From contig JAGOVG010000005.1 in the NCBI GenBank assembly GCA_018060845.1, positions 2,530-66,529 of the forward strand: DNA of 64,000 nucleotides. The letters are read 5' to 3'. A program made the position numbers and the translations under genes. Within the stretch, counting starts at the first letter, position 1, and every line of letters starts with the position of its first letter. Positions 5,688-63,361 of this stretch are shown here, piece after piece. The notes beneath the pieces were generated by a model. It was not told where the DNA came from. It worked only from the letters and a program-made list of their open reading frames with translations, and ran no database searches. Source of the DNA: Candidatus Woesebacteria bacterium. GTDB taxonomy: Bacteria; Patescibacteriota; Microgenomatia; UBA1400; UBA12108.

Positions 5688-6275
5688 TTAATTACCCTGC
5701 AGTTTCTTTATCAAATCTTCAGGACTCCCGACCGGCACTCCCCCATTCTCTATTATCTCTATCGTCCCCGCAAAACTCGGGTCATCTACTGGACCAGGTA
5801 TCACGTAGACATCTCTTCCCAGCTCTGCTGCGTGCTTAACCGTATTCTTGACTCCACTCTTATGAGGTGAACATGTCACTAGGACTGCATCTGACAGCTT
5901 AACCAGCAACTCATTTCGCACAAAAAACTGCTCCCGTGTCGGCCTATTCCCCTCTGGGTACGCACTCGCTAGTAGTCCACCAGCGTCTAGTATCTCCTGC
6001 TTAAGACTTTTATGCTCTAACGGATAACAATAATCTAACCCATGCGCTAGAACTGCAATAGTCTTACCTCCCATTTTGATAGCTGTTCTATGCGCAATAG
6101 CATCTACCCCGAGCGCCAGTCCCGACACTATGGCATATCCTGCTTTTACCAGCGCAGCCACAAACTGCTCAGTCACCCGGACCCCATATGGGCTCACTGC
6201 CCTAGTTCCCACTACCGCGATCCGTGGCATCGATAGGCATGTCTGGTCTCCCAACAAATATACATCTCGACTCAT
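5688..6275 (-). CDS. dprA: DNA processing protein DprA/Smf (Rossmann-fold DNA-binding domain). The start is probably an internal Met (MSRDVYLLG).
   Basis: VSGLALGVDAIAHRTA... and GTxxT-type motifs typical of DprA. The track ORF starts at GTG. Confidence 0.7.
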   Translation of the reverse strand: MSRDVYLLGDQTCLSMPRIAVVGTRAVSPYGVRVTEQFVAALVKAGYAIVSGLALGVDAIAHRTAIKMGGKTIAVLAHGLDYCYPLEHKSLKQEILDAGGLLASAYPEGNRPTREQFFVRNELLVKLSDAVLVTCSPHKSGVKNTVKHAAELGRDVYVIPGPVDDPSFAGTIEIIENGGVPVGSPEDLIKKLQGN

Positions 6276-6293
6276 AGCGTTATAATAGCAAAA

Positions 6294-6332
6294 CACCCTC
6301 CTCTAGAGTGTCTTTCTCATTAGAGGAGGGTG
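6294..6332. terminator. Perfect 12-bp stem hairpin (caccctcctcta...tagaggagggtg). On the minus-strand transcript it is followed by UUUUGCUAUU, so it is a likely terminator of the small-gene operon upstream of dprA.
   Basis: Inverted repeat seen in the sequence, with a T-run on the minus strand. Confidence 0.5.
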
Positions 6333-14382: not shown

Positions 14383-15417
14383 GTGTATACTATGGGATAT
14401 ATGAAAATAGCTTGGGACTGGTCACTAGAGAGCGAGGCAGAGAGGATACTTGAGATGTCCCTCAAGATCAGTAATGGCTTCTACCACCTCCATCACTTCC
14501 TCCCCCTCCCATTTGACCTAAAAAATACTCGAAAAGATACCTCCCACCATGTCTATCTCCCAGATCTACCCTATACCAAGATCCCTCGGTACTGGGAGTC
14601 TACAAGTCAGGTTGGGGCAACCTACCCCCTCAAACAACTTGGTTCTATCTCCGACCAGTTAGCGCAGCATCTTACCCTCCGCAAACTCCCTTCGCTCGAT
14701 AGCCATATAGTCCAACCAGATGCCGAGATCTATCTCCCCCTAGTGATTACTTGGCTACAATACACGTTCCCTAGACTTCCGCTCCCAGAGACAATCTTGA
14801 TCCACCCCAGCTACTTTGGCACCGGCGGCTCATTCTATTTTAATCAAGAGTCAAAAACAGTCATCCTCTATCTGCGCCATGATCAAGGCCTCTACCCCCT
14901 AGTTGAGATCCTCTTAACTGCACTCCTTAGGCCTCATGCAGGCGAGACCATCTATGCCGACTGGGAAAAGACAGAGTACCTAGTCGACTATCTACTCCTC
15001 GAGAGTAATCTAAAAGATCTCCTGCCCTCTCCTTCTTCTTGGACTCCTACTACCATCCCACCCCACTACTCACTATTCACAGTCAAAGAGTCGACAGACT
15101 TTGTCAAAAAAATAGGACTTAGCAACCATGTCGAATGCCAGTTTAGTCTAGAGGGTGATACTATCTGCTTTAACCATGTCCTCCTGACAGACTTTACAGC
15201 TAGCCAACATGCATTACTTTCTGCCTTGATCTCGCGCTCACCCGCGCCCTTAACCGTAGACGAGATCGCAGACTTAATATTCACCAAAGATGAAAAATTT
15301 AGCCTGAGTGCAATCGGCAAAACTATAGAGAGGCTTCGCAAAAAACTAACGACACTCGGCATCAGTAGTAGCTATATCGCAACAGCGAGCGGTGTCGGGT
15401 ATTATCTCAAGAATTAA
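14383..15417 (+). CDS. Standalone transcriptional regulator with a C-terminal OmpR/PhoB-type winged-helix DNA-binding domain and no receiver domain (paralog C of three).
   Basis: The C-terminal region (LTVDEIADLIF...TIERLRKKL...SGVGYYL) has the trans_reg_C pattern. The N-terminal domain aligns with 50966..52000 (LPxLPYTxIPRxWES, ILLTALLRP/ILAAIFRP). Confidence 0.55.
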   Translation: MYTMGYMKIAWDWSLESEAERILEMSLKISNGFYHLHHFLPLPFDLKNTRKDTSHHVYLPDLPYTKIPRYWESTSQVGATYPLKQLGSISDQLAQHLTLRKLPSLDSHIVQPDAEIYLPLVITWLQYTFPRLPLPETILIHPSYFGTGGSFYFNQESKTVILYLRHDQGLYPLVEILLTALLRPHAGETIYADWEKTEYLVDYLLLESNLKDLLPSPSSWTPTTIPPHYSLFTVKESTDFVKKIGLSNHVECQFSLEGDTICFNHVLLTDFTASQHALLSALISRSPAPLTVDEIADLIFTKDEKFSLSAIGKTIERLRKKLTTLGISSSYIATASGVGYYLKN

Positions 15418-15422
15418 GTAAT

Positions 15423-16478
15423 CTAATACCGTAGCCGTGCCCCTACCTTTACCTTCTTTAGCAGCCTCTCATCAGTCAGTAGTTTGCCGCACCCTCTTAC
15501 TACCGCCGCCATCGGCTCCTCACACACGTAAACAGGCATGCTAGTTGCTTCGGATACCATTTTATCTATGCCTCTAATTAGCGATCCACCCCCAGCCATC
15601 GTGATCCCATGCTGGATAATATCCGATATCAGCTCAGGCGGTGTCTCCTCTATTACGTCCATTACCCCTCGTACTATCTGCTGCAGAGTAGGCGCCATCG
15701 CCTCTCTCACTTCACTCGCATTAAACTTCATCGATTTTGGCAGCCCTGATCCTAGGTCTCGTCCCCTCACCACTGCCTGCAGTCCATCTAGCTTGCTATC
15801 AGCAGTTGCACTACCTACACTCGTTTTTACTTCTTCGGCACTCGCATCGCCCAGTAACAGCCCATACTTTACTCTGGAAAAATGAATAATCGACTCTGTC
15901 AGCTCATCCCCCGCCACCCGTAGTGATTTATTCAAAACAATGCCACCAAGCGACAGCACCGCAATCTCCGTAGTCCCACCACCTATATCTATGATCATCT
16001 GCCCTCTAGGCTCATCAATCGGTAGTCCTGCTCCGATCGCCGCGGCCATCGGCTCTTCAACCAAAAATGCTTCTCTGGCTCCCGCCGAAACCGCCGCCTC
16101 AGACACTGCCCTTCGCTCTACTTCGGTCACCCCCGACGGGATACCAATAATCACCCTTGGCCTTGGCACTTTTGCAATCCATGGCGAATTTTCGTGAACT
16201 TTTTTAATATAGAAATCAAGCATCGCAAGCGCCCCATCGTAGTCAGCAATCACCCCATCGCGTAGTGGTCGCACCGCCTCGATCGCTTGCGGCGTCTTAC
16301 CCGCCATTAACTTGGCTTCGCTCCCAATCGCGAGGACCGCTCCAGTTTTTTTGTGCCGTGCCACGTAGCTAGGCTCCCTTATTAAGATCCCTTTATTCTT
16401 TACAAAAACTAGCGTGTTGGCAGTCCCGAGGTCGATCCCCATATCCATCGAAAAAAGTCCCAAAAGTGCATTAAGCAT
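15423..16478 (-). CDS. mreB: Rod-shape-determining actin homolog MreB (paralog 1).
   Basis: GIDLGTANTLVF... phosphate-1 motif. DIGGGTTE phosphate-2. Overall MreB signature. Confidence 0.9.
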   Translation of the reverse strand: MLNALLGLFSMDMGIDLGTANTLVFVKNKGILIREPSYVARHKKTGAVLAIGSEAKLMAGKTPQAIEAVRPLRDGVIADYDGALAMLDFYIKKVHENSPWIAKVPRPRVIIGIPSGVTEVERRAVSEAAVSAGAREAFLVEEPMAAAIGAGLPIDEPRGQMIIDIGGGTTEIAVLSLGGIVLNKSLRVAGDELTESIIHFSRVKYGLLLGDASAEEVKTSVGSATADSKLDGLQAVVRGRDLGSGLPKSMKFNASEVREAMAPTLQQIVRGVMDVIEETPPELISDIIQHGITMAGGGSLIRGIDKMVSEATSMPVYVCEEPMAAVVRGCGKLLTDERLLKKVKVGARLRY

Positions 16479-46861: not shown

Positions 46862-47947
46862 ATGAACAGTTATAGTCAAATGCCAATCAACTACCTCGAA
46901 CCTCAGTATTCAACCTGGGGCAGATATCTCTCATCGCATCAAACATGTAACATATTTTTTCTTAAGAACACAGGTATCATCCCGCGTATACTCCAGTTTG
47001 TTGACTATTACCATGGTGTTGAAAAAATAAAACCAGTTGTCCTCGATCTAGAAGCACTCAATGCTACTGACCCTCATAATCTCCTGACTGTATTATCCGA
47101 GGCTGGAAGCAAACCAACCATAATAATAGCCAGAGACCTATTCCTTCAGCCAGGTGCTAGCCGACTCGAGAAGGTTCTGGAACAATACTATGTCTCATCA
47201 ACTAGTGGTCTATTAATCGTTCATGAATGCGCACCACACGAACTTTATAACAACTATGAGCGAGCATCATGTCTCTATGTACACCCTCAATTATTCAAGC
47301 TACCCTCAGAAAAGTCAGTGTTAACAGAATACATTAAGAGTACATCTAGATTATGGAAACTGACCTTAACTCCGGCAATAATAGATGAAATTATTGCCTA
47401 CTCAGGCAATATCCCTTGGTTACTCAACGAAAGCATAAGACTCTGCAGCGAAAACCCAAACCTCAAATTTATTGAAATATGCAAACTCCCGAGTCTGAGC
47501 AGCAGAGTAATGTCGTTCTATTCGACCCTCCCCAAGATCTACAAAATACAGCTAAATAGTAAAATGGATCAAGTGGCAAAAGACGAATTAATCGGTTTTG
47601 GACTCATGCAAAGCGACCATCTAATTGGTGAACATTTAAACGAATCTACACATAACTACAAAAAAGAAAAGTTAACAACCACTCCAACCCAGATCCTTCT
47701 TAACTCTATCGACATCTCTGCCTTTTTCTCAAACAGTGAATTGCGACTCATCAACTTACTAAATACTACATCTAAAGAAACTCTAACACGTGATGAAGTG
47801 GCAAATACATTTTATAATACAGACGAGTCATACAGCGACTGGGCCCTATCTCAGATGATCACTAGACTTAGGGCTAAAATAAACAAGCACGAGATACCCT
47901 TAACTATCACGACCAAAAGAGGTATAGGATATGGGATCTCCCGCTGA
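46862..47947 (+). CDS. Standalone regulator with a C-terminal OmpR/PhoB-type winged-helix domain (paralog A; its N-terminal domain diverges from B and C)
   Basis: C-terminal ETLTRDEVANTFY...SQMITRLRAKINK...TKRGIGYGI matches the trans_reg_C pattern. Confidence 0.5.
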   Translation: MNSYSQMPINYLEPQYSTWGRYLSSHQTCNIFFLKNTGIIPRILQFVDYYHGVEKIKPVVLDLEALNATDPHNLLTVLSEAGSKPTIIIARDLFLQPGASRLEKVLEQYYVSSTSGLLIVHECAPHELYNNYERASCLYVHPQLFKLPSEKSVLTEYIKSTSRLWKLTLTPAIIDEIIAYSGNIPWLLNESIRLCSENPNLKFIEICKLPSLSSRVMSFYSTLPKIYKIQLNSKMDQVAKDELIGFGLMQSDHLIGEHLNESTHNYKKEKLTTTPTQILLNSIDISAFFSNSELRLINLLNTTSKETLTRDEVANTFYNTDESYSDWALSQMITRLRAKINKHEIPLTITTKRGIGYGISR

Positions 47948-50965: not shown

Positions 50966-52000
50966 ATGACGTCAAAGAACTGGACTATACCAACTATTAA
51001 CTTTACCCACTCTCCAGAGCTGGAGGCTCGGCGTATCCTCTTTGTCGCCGGTAGCCTCGCCCGTGGCTGGTACCAAAAACACAACTTCCTCATCCTCCCC
51101 GAGCTTGCTGCGCGTGCTCCATCCAGCCAGGTCATCCTCCCCAACCTACCCTATACCACAATCCCTCGCTTTTGGGAGAGTGTGGCCAAACTCAAACTCG
51201 TGACTCCACAGCTCGCGCCTGCCCCGCTCATTGCCGCTACCGAGGCATTGTGTAAGCCATTCTACAAACCAGCGCTATATGTTAGTCATTTATCAGAGCT
51301 AGAAAAATCATATAATCAAGTCAAAGATAACTTTTGGAATACTTTATTTACTCTATTTCCCAGCTACTCCTCCAGAGTAAAAGTTATTACTATCATCAGT
51401 TCTCAGTACGGATCGAGCTCCAGCTTTAACTTGGCTACCACAGAATATAGTTCGATCACAATATATCTACGATCTGATACCAAAATCGATAAACTACTCT
51501 GGTCTATCCTTGCCGCAATCTTTCGACCAAAAATGCAAGATGAGCAAAAATATAGCTGGGAAGAGGTCGAGGCCGTAATAGACTGGCTCATGTCCGAGTC
51601 CAGCCTGGCAGCTAAGCTATCACACCCCCACCCAACTCTCACCAATCTGCGAGCCAACCAACTGTCTAAGTATCGCCAGGATAGCGAGGCATATCTCTCT
51701 AGTCTTGGTATCTCTGGCGTGCTACGCCTAGAAAAGCTTAGTAGTAGCTACTCATATGGTGACACCAAGATCTCTGATTTGACTACCAAACAGCAGATCC
51801 TACTCGATCTACTCCTCGTGAGACGCGGTTTAACCGTAAGTTACGACGAAATCGCCGCATCACTTTGGCCCGACGACGAAGATTGGTCTCTGTATGCCAT
51901 AACCAAAGAAGTTCAAAGACTGCGAGACAAAATAAAAAGTTGTGGGATCAACTCTCCACTCATCCACGCACACCGCAAACTCGGCTACTCGATCGCCTAG
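50966..52000 (+). CDS. Standalone regulator with a C-terminal OmpR/PhoB-type winged-helix domain (paralog B)
   Basis: C-terminal LTTKQQILLDLLLVRRGLTVSYDEIAASLW...RLRDKIK...HRKLGYSI. The N-terminal domain aligns with 14383..15417. Confidence 0.55.
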   Translation: MTSKNWTIPTINFTHSPELEARRILFVAGSLARGWYQKHNFLILPELAARAPSSQVILPNLPYTTIPRFWESVAKLKLVTPQLAPAPLIAATEALCKPFYKPALYVSHLSELEKSYNQVKDNFWNTLFTLFPSYSSRVKVITIISSQYGSSSSFNLATTEYSSITIYLRSDTKIDKLLWSILAAIFRPKMQDEQKYSWEEVEAVIDWLMSESSLAAKLSHPHPTLTNLRANQLSKYRQDSEAYLSSLGISGVLRLEKLSSSYSYGDTKISDLTTKQQILLDLLLVRRGLTVSYDEIAASLWPDDEDWSLYAITKEVQRLRDKIKSCGINSPLIHAHRKLGYSIA

Positions 52001-56108: not shown

Positions 56109-57107
56109 TTACTTAAGTGCCCGCCGATACATCTCAATATTCTCAACCGCCCTCCCCGTCCCCTTGACCACACAGAGCATTGGCTCCTCGGCCACATACG
56201 CTGGTACTCCTACTTCGCGAGTCAGGAGTGTATCCAGATTTCTCAAGGTTGAGGTCCCACCACTCATCACAATCCCTCGGTCAATGATGTCACTCGAGAG
56301 CTCGGGTGGAGTCTCCTCAAGGACCGCCTTAACTACTCCTACGATTTGTGACAATGGTCTCGCTAGAGCTGTAGTCACATCACTCGAAGTGATAGTAATC
56401 GTCTGTGGGAGACCTGACACCGAGTCACGCCCCTTAACTTCCATACTCTCTTCTTTGGGGAGCTTGGTAGCTGAGCCTATCTTGAGCTTGATCATCTCTG
56501 CAGTTTGGTCGCCAATTATCAAAGAATGGCTCCTTCGAATATAATCCGCAATCGCCTCATCAAGTTTGTTCCCGCCGACTCGCGCACTTTTGTGCACTAC
56601 TACTCCGCCCAGTGCTATGACCGCCGCCTCTGCCGCTCCACCACCAATATCTAGGATCATATGTCCCGCTGCCTCGGCGATCGGCATGCCGGCACCTATG
56701 GCTGCTGCTAGAGGTTCGTCAATCAGATAAGCTTCTTTAGCCCCTGCCGAGAGTGTGGCATCCAATGCGGCTCTCCTCTCTACCTGAGTACAGCCTGCCG
56801 GGACACAAATCATTACCTCTGGTTTAAACCACGAGCGCGCGCCTAAGGAGCGAGATATAAAGAAACGCAGCATCGCCTCAGTGACCGCATAATCAGCGAT
56901 CACACCGTCCTTCATTGGGCGGCTGGCTATGATATTGCCAGGTGTACGACCTAGCATTATCTTTGCTTCGTTCCCGACTGCAACTACCTTTTGATCCATC
57001 ACCGAGACCGCAACAACTGTGGGCTCATTTAGCACTATCCCCTCACCCGCTACCCAGACTAATGAGTTAGCTGTCCCTAGATCTATGCCGAGTCGTTTTG
57101 CAAACAT
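56109..57107 (-). CDS. mreB: Rod-shape-determining protein MreB (paralog 2)
   Basis: GIDLGTANSLVWV, DIGGGAAE. 332 aa. Confidence 0.85.
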   Translation of the reverse strand: MFAKRLGIDLGTANSLVWVAGEGIVLNEPTVVAVSVMDQKVVAVGNEAKIMLGRTPGNIIASRPMKDGVIADYAVTEAMLRFFISRSLGARSWFKPEVMICVPAGCTQVERRAALDATLSAGAKEAYLIDEPLAAAIGAGMPIAEAAGHMILDIGGGAAEAAVIALGGVVVHKSARVGGNKLDEAIADYIRRSHSLIIGDQTAEMIKLKIGSATKLPKEESMEVKGRDSVSGLPQTITITSSDVTTALARPLSQIVGVVKAVLEETPPELSSDIIDRGIVMSGGTSTLRNLDTLLTREVGVPAYVAEEPMLCVVKGTGRAVENIEMYRRALK

Positions 57108-57309: not shown

Positions 57310-58221
57310 ATGACCAACTTTGAGACAACATCCTACACTATCTCCGAAACCGCCGAAAAGCTAGACCTCTCCGAAAAAACTCTGCGAAGGTGGGAAGAAG
57401 CCGGGCGCTTTGCCCCATCACGCACGGTTGGTAATCAGCGTCGTTATACTGTCGAAGACCTCCAAATACTGGACGCTATCAAACACAACATCATCCCCCA
57501 TCAAAAAGATTTATTAAATATAACAGCGGCCGCCCAGTTTTTGGATGTGACCGAACCCACGATAGAGCGCTTAGTTAGCGAGGGCTCTCTCCACCCCTTT
57601 ATCACTGTCACTGGCAGATACTACCCACGCCATCGCCTACTCCCATTCCTCGGAAACCTCAAAGGTGAGTCCCCTATCCCACCCACTATCCCCAGCCTAA
57701 CTCCAACCACAGACCCAGTTCCCGAGCCAGTTAAACAGTTCGTAACTCCACCACTTCCCCCTCAGTCAACTGTAGTCCCACTTTCAAAGAATAATACTCA
57801 ATCCCACCCTTCTTACACTATATATAGTATGCAGGTGGTCATTACTGTCGCCCTCCTCACCGTCTACCATCTCCTCTTCCGTGCTCCCATTACCCCAACT
57901 AGCCCCACTCCAGTTCCTGGCAGTGTCCAGGGTGCGGCAACCAATCCCAGTCTCCTCCTACTCGACGACATGCTAGATAGCACAACTGGTGGTCTAACTG
58001 CCACAACCATTACCTCCAAGCTAGGTACCATCACCCCAAACCTCACCCTGCTGCCCGGGATCTCCCCCACCTCGCCGTTCCCAGGTAGTCTCTACTATGA
58101 TGCGAGTGAAAATGTCCTAAAAATCTACACCACTAACGGCTGGCAAGCAATCACAACTTCTGCCGAACTAAACGCACTTAAATTTGATCTGGAATCAAAG
58201 GTTGCAACTACAAGTAACTAG
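57310..58221 (+). CDS. Membrane protein with two tandem N-terminal MerR/excisionase-type HTH domains, a Pro-rich linker, one TM helix and an extracytoplasmic C-terminal domain
   Basis: Two LxxKTLRRWEExG / LDVTEPTIERLVSEG HTH repeats. TM VVITVALLTVYHLLF. Confidence 0.45.
   Translation: MTNFETTSYTISETAEKLDLSEKTLRRWEEAGRFAPSRTVGNQRRYTVEDLQILDAIKHNIIPHQKDLLNITAAAQFLDVTEPTIERLVSEGSLHPFITVTGRYYPRHRLLPFLGNLKGESPIPPTIPSLTPTTDPVPEPVKQFVTPPLPPQSTVVPLSKNNTQSHPSYTIYSMQVVITVALLTVYHLLFRAPITPTSPTPVPGSVQGAATNPSLLLLDDMLDSTTGGLTATTITSKLGTITPNLTLLPGISPTSPFPGSLYYDASENVLKIYTTNGWQAITTSAELNALKFDLESKVATTSN
58160..58221 (+). repeat. 3'-terminal coding segment of gene 57310..58221 (…AELNALKFDLESKVATTSN*). A diverged copy is duplicated at 59580..59641.
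   Basis: ~60-nt similarity. The differences are mostly synonymous. Confidence 0.6.
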
Positions 58222-58261
58222 CCCATTGACACCCTATAGCATAAGTGTAGAATACACATCT

Positions 58262-59566
58262 GTTATGTCTCAAGTAGCAGAAACAGGGGTAAGCAAAGCC
58301 ATTAGAAGCGCAGGCGACCTGTTTTGGAGCGTACCATCCTCGATCGCCACTTACTATGCGCTAGGTGTCAGCATGCTGACCGAAATTACCCAGGTAGCTA
58401 CCACACAAAGAACATCACAGCTCAGCCCTGCTTCTGATTTTTATACGACAGAGTATATAGAGGTCCTCCAAGATAGCTATGAGCCTTACAGGATACTAGA
58501 GAATGTTATTCCACAATCAGACAACTATTTCACACCAGGCGAACTAGGATTCATCCTCGCTGGCATGCACCTATTCTCTCGCAATCTAAATTTTGACGAC
58601 CCAAGTGGATTTACTAATCCATTATCAAGACTCTCTGCAAATCTAGAGGAAAAACAGGCTAAGCTCTCTAGCATTTTTGACAATGCACTAGAAAATCACC
58701 CGTTTATCAGAGCTACCCTACACCAGCTCTCGCGGTCACTAGAATACTCTACGGTCATACTAGACCCACTACTCCCATCAGCTGCCAAGTTATTAGTGCT
58801 GGGTATCGCAACGGAGGCATATATCGACAACCCAGCTATCTACAGCGCACTGCTACTAGTGTCTACTGTCGGAACCATTATCACTATCAACGATATTATC
58901 AGGATTACAGGCAAATCATTAGATGCTCTCCAAAAATTCGGTTTCCAAATAACCGCTGATGAGCCAATTACAAATAGTAGCACATCTACCATAAATATGG
59001 CCAAGAGTTCCTCAAAACCGGGATCTAATAGAACAAAATCCGCTCAATCGGCGAGCCATTATGCGCCAATTATGAGTGCTCACCCTGACGCAAGTTCACT
59101 GGGCGGACTAGGTATTGATCCAAATCAGGCCTTATTACACCAGATGTCTCCAAAAGGCAACAGAAAATCAGTCGATGTGGGTTCCTTTAGTATTGTTGTG
59201 GAATCTGAGGTCGATACTCATTTGGGGTTGGTTGGACCACAATCAGAATCTGCGGCACGCAATCTAGCCGCTGAGCTCAGAAGTAAAGGTGTAAAAGTTG
59301 CCGTAGTAGATACAGATAATTCCATTGGCAGATTAGGATCTAAGACTGAAGGTGGCGCTGTAGTTATTGCTTTCACTAGAAATCCTAGTCCAGTCGAACC
59401 TAGCAATGAACACTATGATCGAGAAAAACCTCAATTAGGTGCTACTGTTATTACTTTCAAAGCCGTAGACGATACAACCATTGTAGCGAACGATATCCTA
59501 ACAGGTAAACCGTTCACTGGAATTATTGGCAAGAAGAAACCTCCATCGCCAAAACTTCTAAAATAG
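58262..59566 (+). CDS. Hypothetical protein (start at MSQVAETG), flanked by the duplicated 3' tail of the upstream gene
   Basis: ORF in a different frame from the upstream gene. Confidence 0.4.
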   Translation, partial: VMSQVAETGVSKAIRSAGDLFWSVPSSIATYYALGVSMLTEITQVATTQRTSQLSPASDFYTTEYIEVLQDSYEPYRILENVIPQSDNYFTPGELGFILAGMHLFSRNLNFDDPSGFTNPLSRLSANLEEKQAKLSSIFDNALENHPFIRATLHQLSRSLEYSTVILDPLLPSAAKLLVLGIATEAYIDNPAIYSALLLVSTVGTIITINDIIRITGKSLDALQKFGFQITADEPITNSSTSTINMAKSSSKPGSNRTKSAQSASHYAPIMSAHPDASSLGGLGIDPNQALLHQMSPKGNRKSVDVGSFSIVVESEVDTHLGLVGPQSESAARNLAAELRSKGVKVAVVDTDNSIGRLGSKTEGGAVVIAFTRNPSPVEPSNEHYDREKPQLGATVITFKAVDDTTIVANDILTGKPFTGIIGKKKPPSPKLLK

Positions 59567-59579
59567 CCAAATATAGCCA

Positions 59580-59641
59580 CTAGAACTAAATGCACTCAAA
59601 TTTGATCTGGAATCAAAGGTTGCTACAAATACTAGCAACTA
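59580..59641 (+). repeat. Orphan second copy of the upstream gene's C-terminal tail (encodes ELNALKFDLESKVATNTSN*)
   Basis: Alignment to 58160..58221. Confidence 0.6.
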
Positions 59642-59931
59642 ACTAATTACCCTCTTTTGTGTGTCCCGGGCCATACTTAATCTCTCCGCCATTCGCAATA
59701 AGAGTCCTAGACCCTATCGTTCCTTCGGGACTAATTTTAGGCGCGAATATTTCACAAAGAAAATTCGGTAATCCCAAAAACACTAAAGTTTTGTAAATCC
59801 ACATACTTTCTGGTTCAACTGCATTTGTCATGATTATCCTTTAGCAAAAGAATTATATATTTGTGCGTACCATTTACACACAAAAAGCTATTTTACACCT
59901 CTCTCACAACTTGTCAACAACATTGCAAAAT

Positions 59932-60387
59932 CTATTTAAACAACTCAGCCTTACCCTTTACTGCCTTATCAATCGCATCTAACATACTCCCCGAGTCTCT
60001 GGGAGATTGCCAGATCACATTGCTAATGGCTCCAGCCAATTCTTGAATATTTCCTGCACGCACATGGCGGTAATTTTTCAATACTATCTTACTAGCGAGA
60101 GTGTCAGCGTCTTTCTTAACAGTTTCAAATACCTTTTTGTACTCACCCTCAGATCTTACTAAGAGATGTACCGCGTTAGCACTAGACAGATATAATAATA
60201 AGAGAGCATTTTCATCATGGTTCAGATTAAAACCATCTGTATCAGCCACCATCATTAAGATTGTTGAGATGTTGCCAACCCAACCAAACGCGTCTACTTC
60301 ATCTGTAGGTATACTCCTAACCGAATCAACGTATGCCTGCCCTAAGACAGTTGCTAGCGCCAACACACCCTCAATATTTATGCTCAT
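59932..60387 (-). CDS. Hypothetical protein (151 aa)
   Basis: ORF only. Confidence 0.3.
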   Translation of the reverse strand: MSINIEGVLALATVLGQAYVDSVRSIPTDEVDAFGWVGNISTILMMVADTDGFNLNHDENALLLLYLSSANAVHLLVRSEGEYKKVFETVKKDADTLASKIVLKNYRHVRAGNIQELAGAISNVIWQSPRDSGSMLDAIDKAVKGKAELFK

Positions 60388-60479
60388 TTTGTATCATTCT
60401 CCATATTGACATAGTATAAGAGAGGTGTATTATATCCTATATTATTAGTAAATACACATTAAATATATAAGGATAAAAT

Positions 60480-61052
60480 ATGTACTTCGCACCCGCTGTA
60501 AAAGAACAAGCAAGCTATCACGAAATAAATACATCAGATCAGAGCGTAGATTCATTCGCTAGTGTTGCACTACTGCTTCCCTTGTTTAACGAGAGGCTCA
60601 AAAATTTTGATCTAAATGATGTTTTAACATGGGCTGCAGGTATTACAACAGGATTAATAGTTATTTATCTAGCATCAGCGGTCAAAGAAAATAACGAAGA
60701 ACCTAGGCGTAAAGGCCAAAGTCTAGATGAATTTTCCTTAGATACAATGGAGCCAGGAAAAAGAAGGCATAGCATGGAAACCAAACTTAACACAAAACTT
60801 AAAAATAATGCAGATCAATTAACGGACAGTGAAAAAGAATACATAGCTAACTTAAGACCTGATCAAATATCAAAACATCTGAAACATCTCATATCCCACG
60901 CAGTCGAACTCGAAAGCATAATGAGGTCTAATGATATTCACAATGGATTCAACCCAAATATGGACTCACGCAGAAATCAAGCATTCAATAATTATAGAGG
61001 CACAACGACCCAAATCAAAAAGGCTATCCAGCCATCACGCTTTAAGAAATAA
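60480..61052 (+). CDS. Hypothetical protein with one TM helix
   Basis: ORF only. Confidence 0.3.
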   Translation: MYFAPAVKEQASYHEINTSDQSVDSFASVALLLPLFNERLKNFDLNDVLTWAAGITTGLIVIYLASAVKENNEEPRRKGQSLDEFSLDTMEPGKRRHSMETKLNTKLKNNADQLTDSEKEYIANLRPDQISKHLKHLISHAVELESIMRSNDIHNGFNPNMDSRRNQAFNNYRGTTTQIKKAIQPSRFKK

Positions 61053-61107: not shown

Positions 61108-62520
61108 ATGAAAAAGCACGACCACATCTACCGCCCCCTCGTCTTCTTTGCGACCATCCTCTTTGTCCTCGTCGGCACCTACTTTGTCATCCGCTACGCC
61201 AAGGGTGATCGCCTAGGCCAGACTGGCGTCGTCAAAGGGACCGGCCTCCTCTCTGCCAACAGCTTCCCGACCAGTGCTCAGGTCTATATCGACGGCAGGT
61301 TAACCACAGCTACCGACAATACCCTCAACCTCGATCCAGGTACCTACAAAATCGAGATCAAAAAAGACGGCTACCACACCTGGTCAAAGAGTGTCGCTAT
61401 AGCTGCTGAGTTAGTAACCCCCACTAACGCCCAGCTCTTTCCCACTAGCCCGACCTTGGAGCCACTGACTTATACTGGCGCCGAGAACCCGACCCCCAGC
61501 GCCGATGGTAACGCTCTAGCTTTTACTGTTGCCTCCGCTTCTGCTAGCACCAAAAACGGACTATATGTCCAGGATCTCAGTAGCAGCCCAATCAGCCTCA
61601 ACAAAAATGCGCGTCAGATCGCCCAGAATACGAGCGAGCACAACTATAGCCGCTCAAAGTTTGTCTTCTCGCCCAACAGCAGCGAGATCTTGGTCTCCTT
61701 TGATTCTGGTGCACACCTCCTCCTTGATGCTAGTCGCTTTAACAACCCTCAGGATCTCCAGGATGTGACCTGGAACCTCAGCTCTATCCTCAATGATTGG
61801 GAACTAGAGATGGCGCGCACCGAGCGAGTGAGGCTACTCGAGCTCCCTATCTTCTTTCAGGAGATCGCAACCGAGAGCGGCAAGCTAACTAACCTCTACT
61901 TCTCCCCCGACGGCAAAAAGCTCCTCTACCAGGCGCTCCAAGAGATCGAGATCCCAATCGGGTTGATCCCTCCACTACCTGCCACAAGTAGTCAGGTAGA
62001 GTCCAGGAAAATCTCTCCCGGTAACTGGTATATTTATGACATTGTCGAAGACAAAAACTTTGCCATTGCCAGTGGAACTATTGCAACACCGAGTCCAACC
62101 CCAACCCCCAAAAATAACAAAAAAATAACTACTCCTCAGACACCTGTCGCCGCGATCTCCAAACTCATGTTGCTAGACAATCTCTCCCCAATCCCCGCCG
62201 AGACTACTAGTAGTCCCAGTGCCTACCGCAAGCTCCAGGACAATGTATCTCGCGAAACTACACTCGCCCTCATCTCCGCCCAATACTCCTCGATCTACAT
62301 CGACTCTGTCCAGTGGTATCCTGACTCCGCTCACCTCATCCTCCACTCAGATAACAAAATCGAGATCGTCGAATATGACGCCACCAACAAAGTAACACTC
62401 TACGATGGACCCTTTGATAGTAGTATCGTCTACCCTTGGCCAGACGGAAGTAAAATAATTACAAGAATTGGTTTTTCAGAAGGGACCGTGCCTAATTTAT
62501 ATACAATTAAACTAAAATAG
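61108..62520 (+). CDS. Membrane-anchored PEGA-domain protein with a probable beta-propeller (TolB-like) C-terminal region
   Basis: N-terminal TM. PEGA-like segment (VYIDGRLTTATDNTLNLDPGTYKIEIKKDGYHTW). Confidence 0.5.
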   Translation: MKKHDHIYRPLVFFATILFVLVGTYFVIRYAKGDRLGQTGVVKGTGLLSANSFPTSAQVYIDGRLTTATDNTLNLDPGTYKIEIKKDGYHTWSKSVAIAAELVTPTNAQLFPTSPTLEPLTYTGAENPTPSADGNALAFTVASASASTKNGLYVQDLSSSPISLNKNARQIAQNTSEHNYSRSKFVFSPNSSEILVSFDSGAHLLLDASRFNNPQDLQDVTWNLSSILNDWELEMARTERVRLLELPIFFQEIATESGKLTNLYFSPDGKKLLYQALQEIEIPIGLIPPLPATSSQVESRKISPGNWYIYDIVEDKNFAIASGTIATPSPTPTPKNNKKITTPQTPVAAISKLMLLDNLSPIPAETTSSPSAYRKLQDNVSRETTLALISAQYSSIYIDSVQWYPDSAHLILHSDNKIEIVEYDATNKVTLYDGPFDSSIVYPWPDGSKIITRIGFSEGTVPNLYTIKLK

Positions 62521-62620: not shown

Positions 62621-62642
62621 CCTAACGTCCCGGTAGTTCAAC

Positions 62643-62677
62643 GGATAGCCCAGCTGCTCGCGAGCGGCTGGGTCCTA
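62643..62677. repeat. 35-bp direct repeat DR-left (ggatagcccagctgctcgcgagcggctgggtccta). It contains the near-perfect 22-bp palindrome CCAGCTGCTCGCGAGCGGCTGG and is preceded by a tRNA D-arm-like segment.
   Basis: Identical 35-mer at 63024..63058. Confidence 0.6.
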
Positions 62678-62684
62678 AACCTAT

Positions 62685-62930
62685 ATGTATTACGTCTATA
62701 TCATTCAAGATGAAAAGAACAAGCTATATGTCGGCTACTCATCAAACTTGCGTCAAAGATTCAAAGCACATCTTCTAGGCAGCACGCATACCACTGCAAA
62801 TTTTTTAAAGCCCAGACTAATATACTACGAAGCATACGAATCTGAGCAGCTTGCTAGGGATAGGGAAACAAAACTAAAACAGTATGGCTCAAGTTATACA
62901 GGACTTCTCAAGCGACTTGGGTTAAAATAG
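62685..62930 (+). CDS. Small GIY-YIG nuclease-domain protein (81 aa)
   Basis: YVYIIQDEKNKLYVGYSSNLRQRFKAH is a GIY-YIG motif with the conserved Arg. Confidence 0.6.
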   Translation: MYYVYIIQDEKNKLYVGYSSNLRQRFKAHLLGSTHTTANFLKPRLIYYEAYESEQLARDRETKLKQYGSSYTGLLKRLGLK

Positions 62931-62938
62931 ACTCAATA

Positions 62939-63010
62939 GCTCCCATAGTTTAACGGATAGAACAGAGGTTTCCTAAACCTCTAATCCAAGTTCAATTCTT
63001 GGTGGGGGCA
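62939..63010 (+). tRNA. tRNA-Arg (anticodon CCT)
   Basis: Acceptor gctccca/tgggggc (one G-U). Anticodon stem gaggt/acctc with loop uuCCUaa. T-arm ccaag-TTCAATT-cttgg. Confidence 0.75.
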
Positions 63011-63023
63011 CAATATTTTCAAT

Positions 63024-63058
63024 GGATAGCCCAGCTGCTCGCGAGCGGCTGGGTCCTA
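63024..63058. repeat. 35-bp direct repeat DR-right, identical to 62643..62677. It is followed by a second, related palindromic hairpin (ccagctcttcgcgaagggctgg).
   Basis: Exact repeat. The second hairpin has compensatory C-G to T-A changes. Confidence 0.6.
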
Positions 63059-63103
63059 TCCAGCTCTTCGCGAAGGGCTGGACAATTCCCGGTCGGGACA
63101 CCA

Positions 63104-63361
63104 TTACGCTTTATCTTCTTTGAATTTCAATGCTGTAAATATTGAGACTATGTCAGGAACGTATTCTGGGTTAGCGATAACCTGCTGATTTTCACGACTT
63201 AGATCAAATTCATGACAAAAAACCTTAATAGAGTCAGAAATAGAACCTGCGGTCTCACCATCTAGTCTTTGAATCTCTTTAACCTCTTCAGTAGTCATTG
63301 TAAATCGACCAATATGCCCAGGCTCATCACGAAAGAGCGTTCGACGATCAATTATATTCAT
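63104..63361 (-). CDS. Hypothetical protein (85 aa)
   Basis: ORF only. Confidence 0.3.
   Translation of the reverse strand: MNIIDRRTLFRDEPGHIGRFTMTTEEVKEIQRLDGETAGSISDSIKVFCHEFDLSRENQQVIANPEYVPDIVSIFTALKFKEDKA

Follow-up and report, generated by a model that had tools for sequence, protein, structure and literature searches.

Two copies of a conserved gene end around an orphan gene in a Woesebacteria genome: a probable insertion with tail replacement at a variable locus

Why the end of a conserved bacterial gene should occur twice, once in place and once behind an unrelated downstream gene, is the question raised by a locus in a 64,000-nucleotide stretch of the genome of a Candidatus Woesebacteria bacterium (assembly GCA_018060845.1, contig JAGOVG010000005.1), the whole of which is referred to here as the window. 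The gene concerned (57310..58221, plus strand; the host gene) has a 303-aa product that is conserved in Woesebacteria/Microgenomates, and its last 19 codons with the stop codon (58165-58221) are present again at 59583-59642. A first-pass annotation, made from the sequence alone, had reported that the end of this gene is duplicated after the next gene, and we confirmed the direct repeat; the description was correct apart from small shifts of a few bases at the margins of the two copies, the second having been started three bases early (59580) and ended one base early (59641). In the present study, a mostly ordinary explanation was reached for this arrangement, namely, the insertion of an orphan gene with replacement and displacement of the host tail at a recombination hotspot of a candidate phyla radiation (CPR) bacterium.

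The first tail copy (58165..58221, plus strand) begins with GAACTA, ends with AACTAG, encodes ELNALKFDLESKVATTSN followed by the stop codon TAG, and forms the actual 3' terminus of the host open reading frame (ORF); the second (59583..59642, plus strand) encodes ELNALKFDLESKVATNTSN in 20 codons followed by TAA and is now non-coding. The two are direct, not inverted, repeats, with an ungapped match of 44 nt at 93% identity that reaches both stop codons (57 versus 60 nt) once a single 3-nt in-frame indel is allowed. Within this repeat lies an identical core of 26 nt, AAATTTGATCTGGAATCAAAGGTTGC (58180..58205 in the first copy and 59598..59623 in the second, plus strand), which is likely to be the crossover zone and which occurs exactly twice in the window with up to three mismatches allowed (chance expectation 0.00 in 100 shuffles). 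Homology was not detected on either side of the repeat, the local alignment score being equalled by 34-36 of 300 shuffles, and no protein similarity was found between the host protein and that encoded by the insert. A remnant of a larger gene duplication is ruled out by the lack of DNA homology past the repeat and by the dissimilarity of the two proteins.

Over their first 45 nt (15 codons), the tail copies show four differences, all of which are at third positions and synonymous; synonymous changes make up 24% of the possible single changes in this stretch, and the probability of four out of four is approximately 0.004. These all-synonymous differences indicate that each copy was a working tail in some lineage. 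The earlier claims that the copies differ mainly at synonymous sites besides one extra codon, that both evolved under protein-coding constraint, and that the repeat is not a fresh target-site duplication, the copies being diverged, all hold. The tail peptides are identical over 15 residues up to ...KVAT and differ in their last 3-5 residues, with endings of TTSN and TNTSN in the window and of ANN and TTSNLGRIND in the related strain L002. Copy 2 currently lies outside any ORF, with an in-frame TAG at 59574 three codons upstream and a reading frame that differs from that of the intervening gene, and it does not form part of another coding frame, a possibility that the annotation had left to comparative analysis.

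Sixteen related loci, representing 13 distinct relatives, were retrieved by looking up exact proteins and by a single metagenome scan; among them, L001 is the locus of the window itself, and L005-7 represent one strain in several copies. The metagenome scan, for which an alignment of the host C-terminus was used, gave three loci only, and a profile scan of genome contigs with an alignment of the whole host protein returned no close relatives, being swamped by generic MerR helix-turn-helix (HTH) patterns. The only cassette-bearing relative was L002 (ENA ERZ3602260), in which the host protein is 97% identical and two tails are present as well. Both the intervening gene and the second tail were absent from the 11 other strains examined, the host proteins of which are 93% (L003 and L074), 91% (L004), 89% (L075), 84% (L005-7), and approximately 70-73% (L068-L073) identical to that of the window. 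Precise empty sites were recognized in L003, L004, L005-7, L068-L073, and L075; in the empty-site strains, a small convergent ORF lies 0-10 nt after the host stop codon, except in L068 and L069, where the PEGA-domain gene of the right flank comes next, only 18 bp away. The segment between the tails is thus, on this comparison, an insertion polymorphism, with two strains carrying it and 11 lacking it, which bears out its earlier description as an inserted, strain-variable module; the comparison of strains proposed at that time revealed variation rather than one identical arrangement. An assembly artifact is excluded by the independent assembly of the same structure in L002, a strain of 92% identity.

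The insert measures 1.36 kb, places copy 2 1418 bp downstream of copy 1, and contains a single ORF (58265..59566, plus strand), which encodes an orphan protein of 433 aa. The first-pass annotation had assigned 460 aa to this gene, a length that corresponds to a start at TTG 58184; the ATG at 58265 is the better reading, as given by two independent gene calls, and is more likely because the -10 hexamer of the predicted promoter (58248-58253) falls inside the longer reading. This predicted promoter (58226..58253, plus strand; TTGACA-16-TAGAAT, 11/12 matches, sigma-70-like) is part of the insert, beginning 5 nt past the host stop codon and ending 11 nt ahead of the ATG. In both the window and L002, copy 1 runs directly into the insert sequence TAG CCCATTGACACCC..., which is missing at the empty-site relatives; the 24 nt after the host stop codon (58222-58245, including TTGACA) are identical in the two strains, and one mismatch is located at 58246.

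The 433-aa ORF is a real gene because its length is the same in two strains that are 8% apart in DNA and because its dN/dS ratio between them is 0.275. Its GC content (0.40-0.47) is below that of most flanking core genes (approximately 0.50-0.55). A word-indexed search of 5.8e9 clustered proteins and a full HMMER search of 1.84e9 representatives yielded a sole homologue, P0121 in L002 (90% identity), and the protein had no match in Pfam, PHROG, or PADLOC and only a sub-threshold match in NCBIfam (16 bits against a cut-off of 110). Its N-terminal half is helical, with two adjacent hydrophobic helices (approximately residues 164-208, by hydropathy), and precedes a linker of low complexity, which leads to a small alpha/beta region at the C-terminus; it is plausibly a membrane-associated protein. 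The single-sequence AlphaFold2 (AF2) model was uninformative (pLDDT 33).

Regarding which of the two tails is native, copy 2 is the former working end of the host gene, displaced but still in its native context, in the window as well as in L002. In the window, copy 2 and its flank (59582-59657) are colinear with the tail and flank of L005 (4016-4087), the TAA stop codon and the adjoining C.AA.TAC are the same as those in L071 and L073, and the copy abuts a small convergent ORF of an allele designated type A, the same arrangement as that of intact genes in empty-site relatives. In L002, copy 2 reads into a longer tail, ATTSNLGRIND and a stop codon, with an 11-nt overlap, calculated from coordinates, with a small ORF of type B; the intact host gene of L072, which ends in ATTSPTTIN, overlaps a homologous type-B ORF with the same geometry. 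The part of copy 1 to the right of the core, including the distal end and stop codon, came with the insert. In both strains, the sequence that follows copy 1 is that of the cassette, and the present distal end of the host gene was therefore imported together with it; the earlier term 'tail displacement' describes the locus accurately.

Homologous recombination has evidently been active at this locus, as judged from the two cassette-bearing sequences and their relatives. The divergence between the window and L002 is a mosaic in which blocks with 0-4 mismatches per 100 nt alternate with blocks with 15-25; one of the divergent blocks spans the junction of the host tail and cassette. Homology ends at 59626/7, exactly where the copy-2 core stops, and past this point the two strains have different small-ORF alleles. 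The distribution of these alleles (A and B) is discordant with that of the flanking genes. Three linked tail polymorphisms are placed reciprocally in the two strains; copy 2 of the window equals copy 1 of L002 at 45 of 45 nt, and copy 1 of the window matches copy 2 of L002 at 46 of 47 nt. Two recombination imports may explain these reciprocal haplotypes. An integrase, resolvase, transposase, or reverse transcriptase was not found in the cassette or among the 46 ORFs of the window scanned against Pfam (six ORFs longer than 500 aa lay outside the scan), and none of these was found beside the host tail in any of the 16 related loci.

Based on these findings, we lean toward the reading that an accessory cassette consisting of a promoter, the 433-aa orphan gene, and a copy of the host tail recombined into the last 19 codons of the host gene, and hold it as somewhat probable rather than firmly established. 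Incoming DNA with a homologous tail would have completed the host frame with copy 1, and the original tail, copy 2, would have been pushed downstream, where it persists as a non-coding relic beside its native neighbor. The recombination involved may have been of the homologous, RecA type without a dedicated site-specific recombinase, a view favored by the lack of a detectable recombinase together with the mosaic divergence, the point at which homology ends, the discordant small-ORF alleles, and the reciprocal tails; the length of the core, 26 nt, is close to the shortest homology that permits RecA-dependent exchange in Escherichia coli. Two routes are conceivable: the Campbell-type insertion of a circular copy as a presumed intermediate, or DNA uptake followed by incorporation of a linear tail-cassette-tail fragment, the right-hand tail of which would provide homology where the downstream sequence is unrelated. 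In either case, the conserved 57-bp tail would be a portable homology arm for the gain, precise loss, and movement of the cassette between strains with otherwise unrelated downstream DNA. It also anchors, on the left side, a wider hypervariable hotspot that extends to the PEGA gene. The window contains a DprA gene (5688..6296, minus strand; DNA_processg_A, 1.4e-54), which is consistent with a capacity for DNA uptake and recombination, DprA being a mediator of recombination in transformation.

Several points weigh against this interpretation. The synonymous divergence (dS) between the window and L002 is 0.18 for the cassette and 0.29 and 0.47 for the flanking genes, which is not dramatically lower and is within the range of the low-divergence flank blocks; a single ancestral gain followed by later imports fits equally well. 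A recent independent acquisition is not claimed for the same reason, and the reciprocal haplotypes can be explained by imports. With two cassette-bearing strains only, crossover positions are unmappable. A 57-bp homology is short for efficient homologous recombination, and the model leaves the first tail-cassette-tail arrangement unexplained. Moreover, a trans-acting site-specific recombinase may be encoded elsewhere in the genome of approximately 1 Mb, and the 433-aa protein itself, for which the model of pLDDT 33 is unusable, may be a novel recombinase fold.

The main alternative assumes that the insert is an integrase-less element flanked by attachment (att) sites, the tails being attL and attR of a system of the e14 and phage 21 type at icd from which the integrase was lost or in which it was never present, and that it was mobilized by a tyrosine or serine recombinase acting in trans, as for a cis-mobilizable element (CIME) or a satellite; we regard this alternative as unlikely, if by no means far-fetched. 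CIMEs carry cargo between attL- and attR-like direct repeats, have no recombination genes of their own, and rely on integrase-bearing elements that use the same att site. The present cassette is similarly a cargo flanked by direct repeats without recombination genes; however, an integrase-bearing element was not detected at the host tail in the 16 related loci, the scanned ORFs, or IMG/VR. The repeat is sharply bounded and its 26-nt core includes a 6-bp inverted repeat (TTTGAT-N5-ATCAAA), which, with the precise empty sites in relatives, is in accordance with site-specific exchange, but the folding energy of the core hairpin was not significant. Furthermore, polymorphisms on both sides of the core have been shuffled between the copies, which strict exchange at a single site alone would not achieve.

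An origin from a phage or attP site was rejected after searches of IMG/VR, in which the exact 18-mer core gave four chance matches in unrelated contexts, a degenerate 27-mer gave none, the protein search gave no match, and no phage contig was found with the tail site or the 433-aa gene. Almost all close relatives, and also L070, have the core 18-mer TTTGATCTGGAATCAAAG unchanged, but it varies in L068, L069, L071, L072, and L075. Constraint on the core at the DNA level beyond coding gave no clear signal, with neighboring conserved codons being about equally invariant.

The architecture at issue is that of the classic icd/e14/icdC case, with a 3' end supplied by the element and a displaced fragment at the far end. 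In E. coli, the element e14 supplies the 3' end of icd, the displaced icdC fragment, a short C-terminal pseudogene, differs from it mainly at synonymous sites, and recombination between the icd and icdC copies restores a chimeric gene (PMC13626634). Our locus is similar to e14 and phage 21 at icd in the position of the element within the 3' end of a conserved gene, its provision of a replacement end, the displacement of the original end to the far side, the resulting direct repeats around an element-completed gene, and the empty sites in relatives. It differs in that e14 is approximately 15 kb and encodes its own integrase and excisionase, whereas the 1.36-kb insert encodes no recognizable recombinase. 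The locus thus has the same footprint as classical integrations at the 3' ends of genes, and it reveals no new molecular machine.

Two further systems bear on the route by which recombination may have installed the cassette. In a Campbell-type insertion-duplication, the insert comes to lie between direct repeats, of which the upstream copy joins the incoming DNA and the downstream copy the native right flank. The product has the same geometry as the tail-cassette-tail arrangement described here; however, such insertions are mainly a laboratory tool and a means of plasmid and integrative and conjugative element integration, and no natural 1.4-kb circle carrying this gene alone has been observed. 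The minimal mobile elements (MMEs) of Neisseria are reportedly whole-gene cassettes between two conserved genes, variable among strains and without mobility genes, and are considered to be exchanged by transformation, with homologous recombination taking place in the conserved flanks. The interval from the MerR-like host gene to the PEGA gene resembles an MME in ranging from 18 to 2889 bp and in containing unrelated orphan genes in different strains; a duplication of the flank end is not described for MMEs, whereas the cassette here stands between two copies of the last 57 bp of the left flank. The MME concept is attributed to Saunders and Snyder (2002) in a passage of PMC1538595.

Whether the tail-cassette-tail arrangement represents a distinct kind of integrase-free mobile cassette in CPR bacteria, one that brings along, as a portable homology arm, a copy of the conserved target-gene 3' end, is doubtful in our view. 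If this were the case, the host's homologous recombination would be able to install such a cassette, once taken up as DNA, in any strain, whatever lies downstream, without damage to the target gene. The locus offers a comparative example of how accessory orphan genes may be gained and lost by uncultivated CPR bacteria, the genomes of which are small and poor in recombinases, with a conserved gene end as the recombination anchor and a replacement tail that keeps the target gene intact.

A local duplication of the host 3' end, through slippage, unequal exchange, or fill-in of a staggered break, with the capture or birth of an orphan gene between the copies and later overwriting of both, is rather improbable. 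Under this alternative, the synonymous-only differences are ascribed to recombination with the functional tails of other strains, and imports have clearly overwritten the region; the lack of a donor context for the cassette and the lack of homologues of its gene beyond L002 also fit. On the other hand, no known mechanism duplicates a 57-bp target on the two sides of an insert of 1.36 kb, terminal inverted repeats and homology past the repeat are missing, the cassette has its own promoter and a GC content below that of the flanking genes, and the differences between the copies in stop codon and distal tail follow the allele type and are not those of random decay.

A functional exchange of C-termini, in which a silent cassette, the second tail, could replace the expressed tail of the host protein as in polymorphic toxins, pilS-type systems, shufflons, or diversity-generating retroelements, is suggested by an in-frame tail copy displaced downstream of an expressed gene and by the different last 3-5 residues, and is nevertheless very improbable, considering that the 15 residues before them are identical, that ordinary orthologues vary to the same degree in these last residues, that recombination between direct repeats would delete the cassette and not switch tails, that toxin, immunity, invertase, and reverse transcriptase genes were not detected, that the mismatches are not adenine-specific (C/T, T/C, A/T, and T/A), and that 11 related strains have no second tail. 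The comparison with polymorphic toxin or adhesin loci made in the first-pass annotation therefore does not apply, since both tails encode the same peptide without an alternative domain and copy 2 is followed by a stop codon instead of a new module with an immunity gene, no toxin domain being found; that with tail-fiber shufflons fails on the orientation of the repeats and the lack of a detected recombinase. Its notion of an exchangeable module is valid for the gene downstream of the tail, but not for the host C-terminus.

Other candidates were also rejected. The non-adenine mismatches and the lack of a reverse transcriptase among the scanned ORFs exclude a diversity-generating retroelement, and the diverged repeats of 57/60 nt, without terminal inverted repeats or a transposase, exclude a transposon with a target-site duplication. 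An integron gene cassette was rejected because no integrase was found and the tail hairpins are weak, with z values from +0.2 to -1.5 in five of six folds and -2.8 (-11 kcal/mol) for the plus strand of window copy 2. An attC-like or terminator structure in the tail was rejected likewise, since no more than two hairpins form, both of them weak. A dif/Xer-type terminus site was rejected on the uniformly negative GC skew across the window; to our knowledge, the 26-nt core is also dissimilar to known dif sites.

The host protein has a MerR/HTH_17 (excisionase-type) HTH in its N-terminal region, with matches to Pfam MerR_1 (6e-17), HTH_17 in two stretches, and NCBIfam TIGR01764 'excise' (4e-8), followed by a proline-rich linker, one transmembrane helix (residues 176-194, by hydropathy), and a conserved C-terminal domain that ends in the tail ELNALKFDLESKVAT.SN. 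Its earlier description as a membrane protein with excisionase-type HTH domains was thus accurate. Among the 120 homologues returned, the tail peptide belongs to the conserved C-terminus in the 32 closest. Where the flanks were covered, the host gene has a divergent mreB on one side and the PEGA-domain gene downstream, which is located at 61108..62520 on the plus strand in the window (Pfam PEGA 3.7e-10) and forms a conserved right flank in every relative. The last 45 residues of the host protein showed a weak match (41% over 34 aa, tblastn E 0.002) to a segment of the PEGA gene (61456-61557), the position of which is kept in L002-L004; the similarity is probably compositional.

The interval between the MerR-like and PEGA genes is, among the strains compared, a strain-variable hotspot. 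The distance between the two genes is 18, approximately 310-360, 944, 1164, 2616, or 2889 bp depending on the strain, the window having the largest, and the extra DNA encodes mutually unrelated orphan proteins in different strains. Immediately to the right of the tail, a slot of approximately 220-280 bp (59643-59922 in the window, 2535-2868 in L002, 2071-2353 in L003, 1441-1775 in L004, and 4074-4392 in L005) contains, in every strain, one small convergent ORF of 62-104 aa, the allele types of which are not homologous to one another: type A occurs in the window, L071, and L073, type B in L002 and L072, and further types in L003, L004, and L075. The type A ORF of the window (59643..59831, minus strand, 62 aa) is one that natively abuts the host stop codon and resembles those of L071 (E 4e-5) and L073; the type B ORF of L002 is similar to that of L072 (42% identity, E 8e-15). 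The right boundary of the slot is a conserved piece of approximately 60 bp (59862..59922, minus strand) with a leftward promoter-like TTGACA-16-TAAAAT (59917-59890), which is kept in L002, L003, L004, and L005.

Farther to the right, two strain-specific orphan genes without family matches are found (59932..60387, minus strand, 151 aa; 60480..61052, plus strand, 190 aa), and the region 59932..61052, with a GC content of 0.34-0.40, is absent from L002-L005. An inverted repeat of 29 nt (59889-59917 and 60406-60434, 76% complementary) flanks the 151-aa gene, and its arms contain 11/12 promoter-like sites that face outward to the 62-aa and 190-aa ORFs, which suggests an insertion of the 151-aa gene within a divergent promoter region, in the course of which the promoter piece was duplicated. 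A defense island was rejected, as none of eight hotspot proteins matched PADLOC. This hotspot beside mreB may be useful for the strain typing of Woesebacteria and for finding lineage-specific genes, possibly including those for host interactions.

A second insert is located approximately 3 kb away, after the PEGA gene. In L005 and L071, this position is occupied by a single tRNA-Arg(CCT) gene, GTCCCGG...CCGGGACA, which is apparently split in the window and L002 into two pieces, one from the 5' side (62627-62684) and one from the 3' side (63018-63107); both pieces contain the GC-rich hairpin CCCAGCTGCTCGCGAGCGGCTGGG, and the 3' piece folds stably (z -3.6). Between them are a GIY-YIG endonuclease ORF (62685..62930) and an intact tRNA-Arg(CCT) gene that differs from the split one (62939-63011), and a direct repeat of 41 nt (62637-62677 and 63018-63058, 98% identical) brackets this insert. 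The segment 62626-63107 looks like a second replace-and-displace insertion, and the parallel hints that insertions of this type may be a general route of gene gain in reduced genomes. Elsewhere in the window, two MreB paralogues are encoded on the minus strand (15423-16478 and 56109-57107), as well as, on the plus strand, three paralogues of approximately 344-361 aa (14383-15417, 46862-47947, and 50966-52000), in which only a C-terminal Trans_reg_C domain, an OmpR-type winged helix, was recognized.

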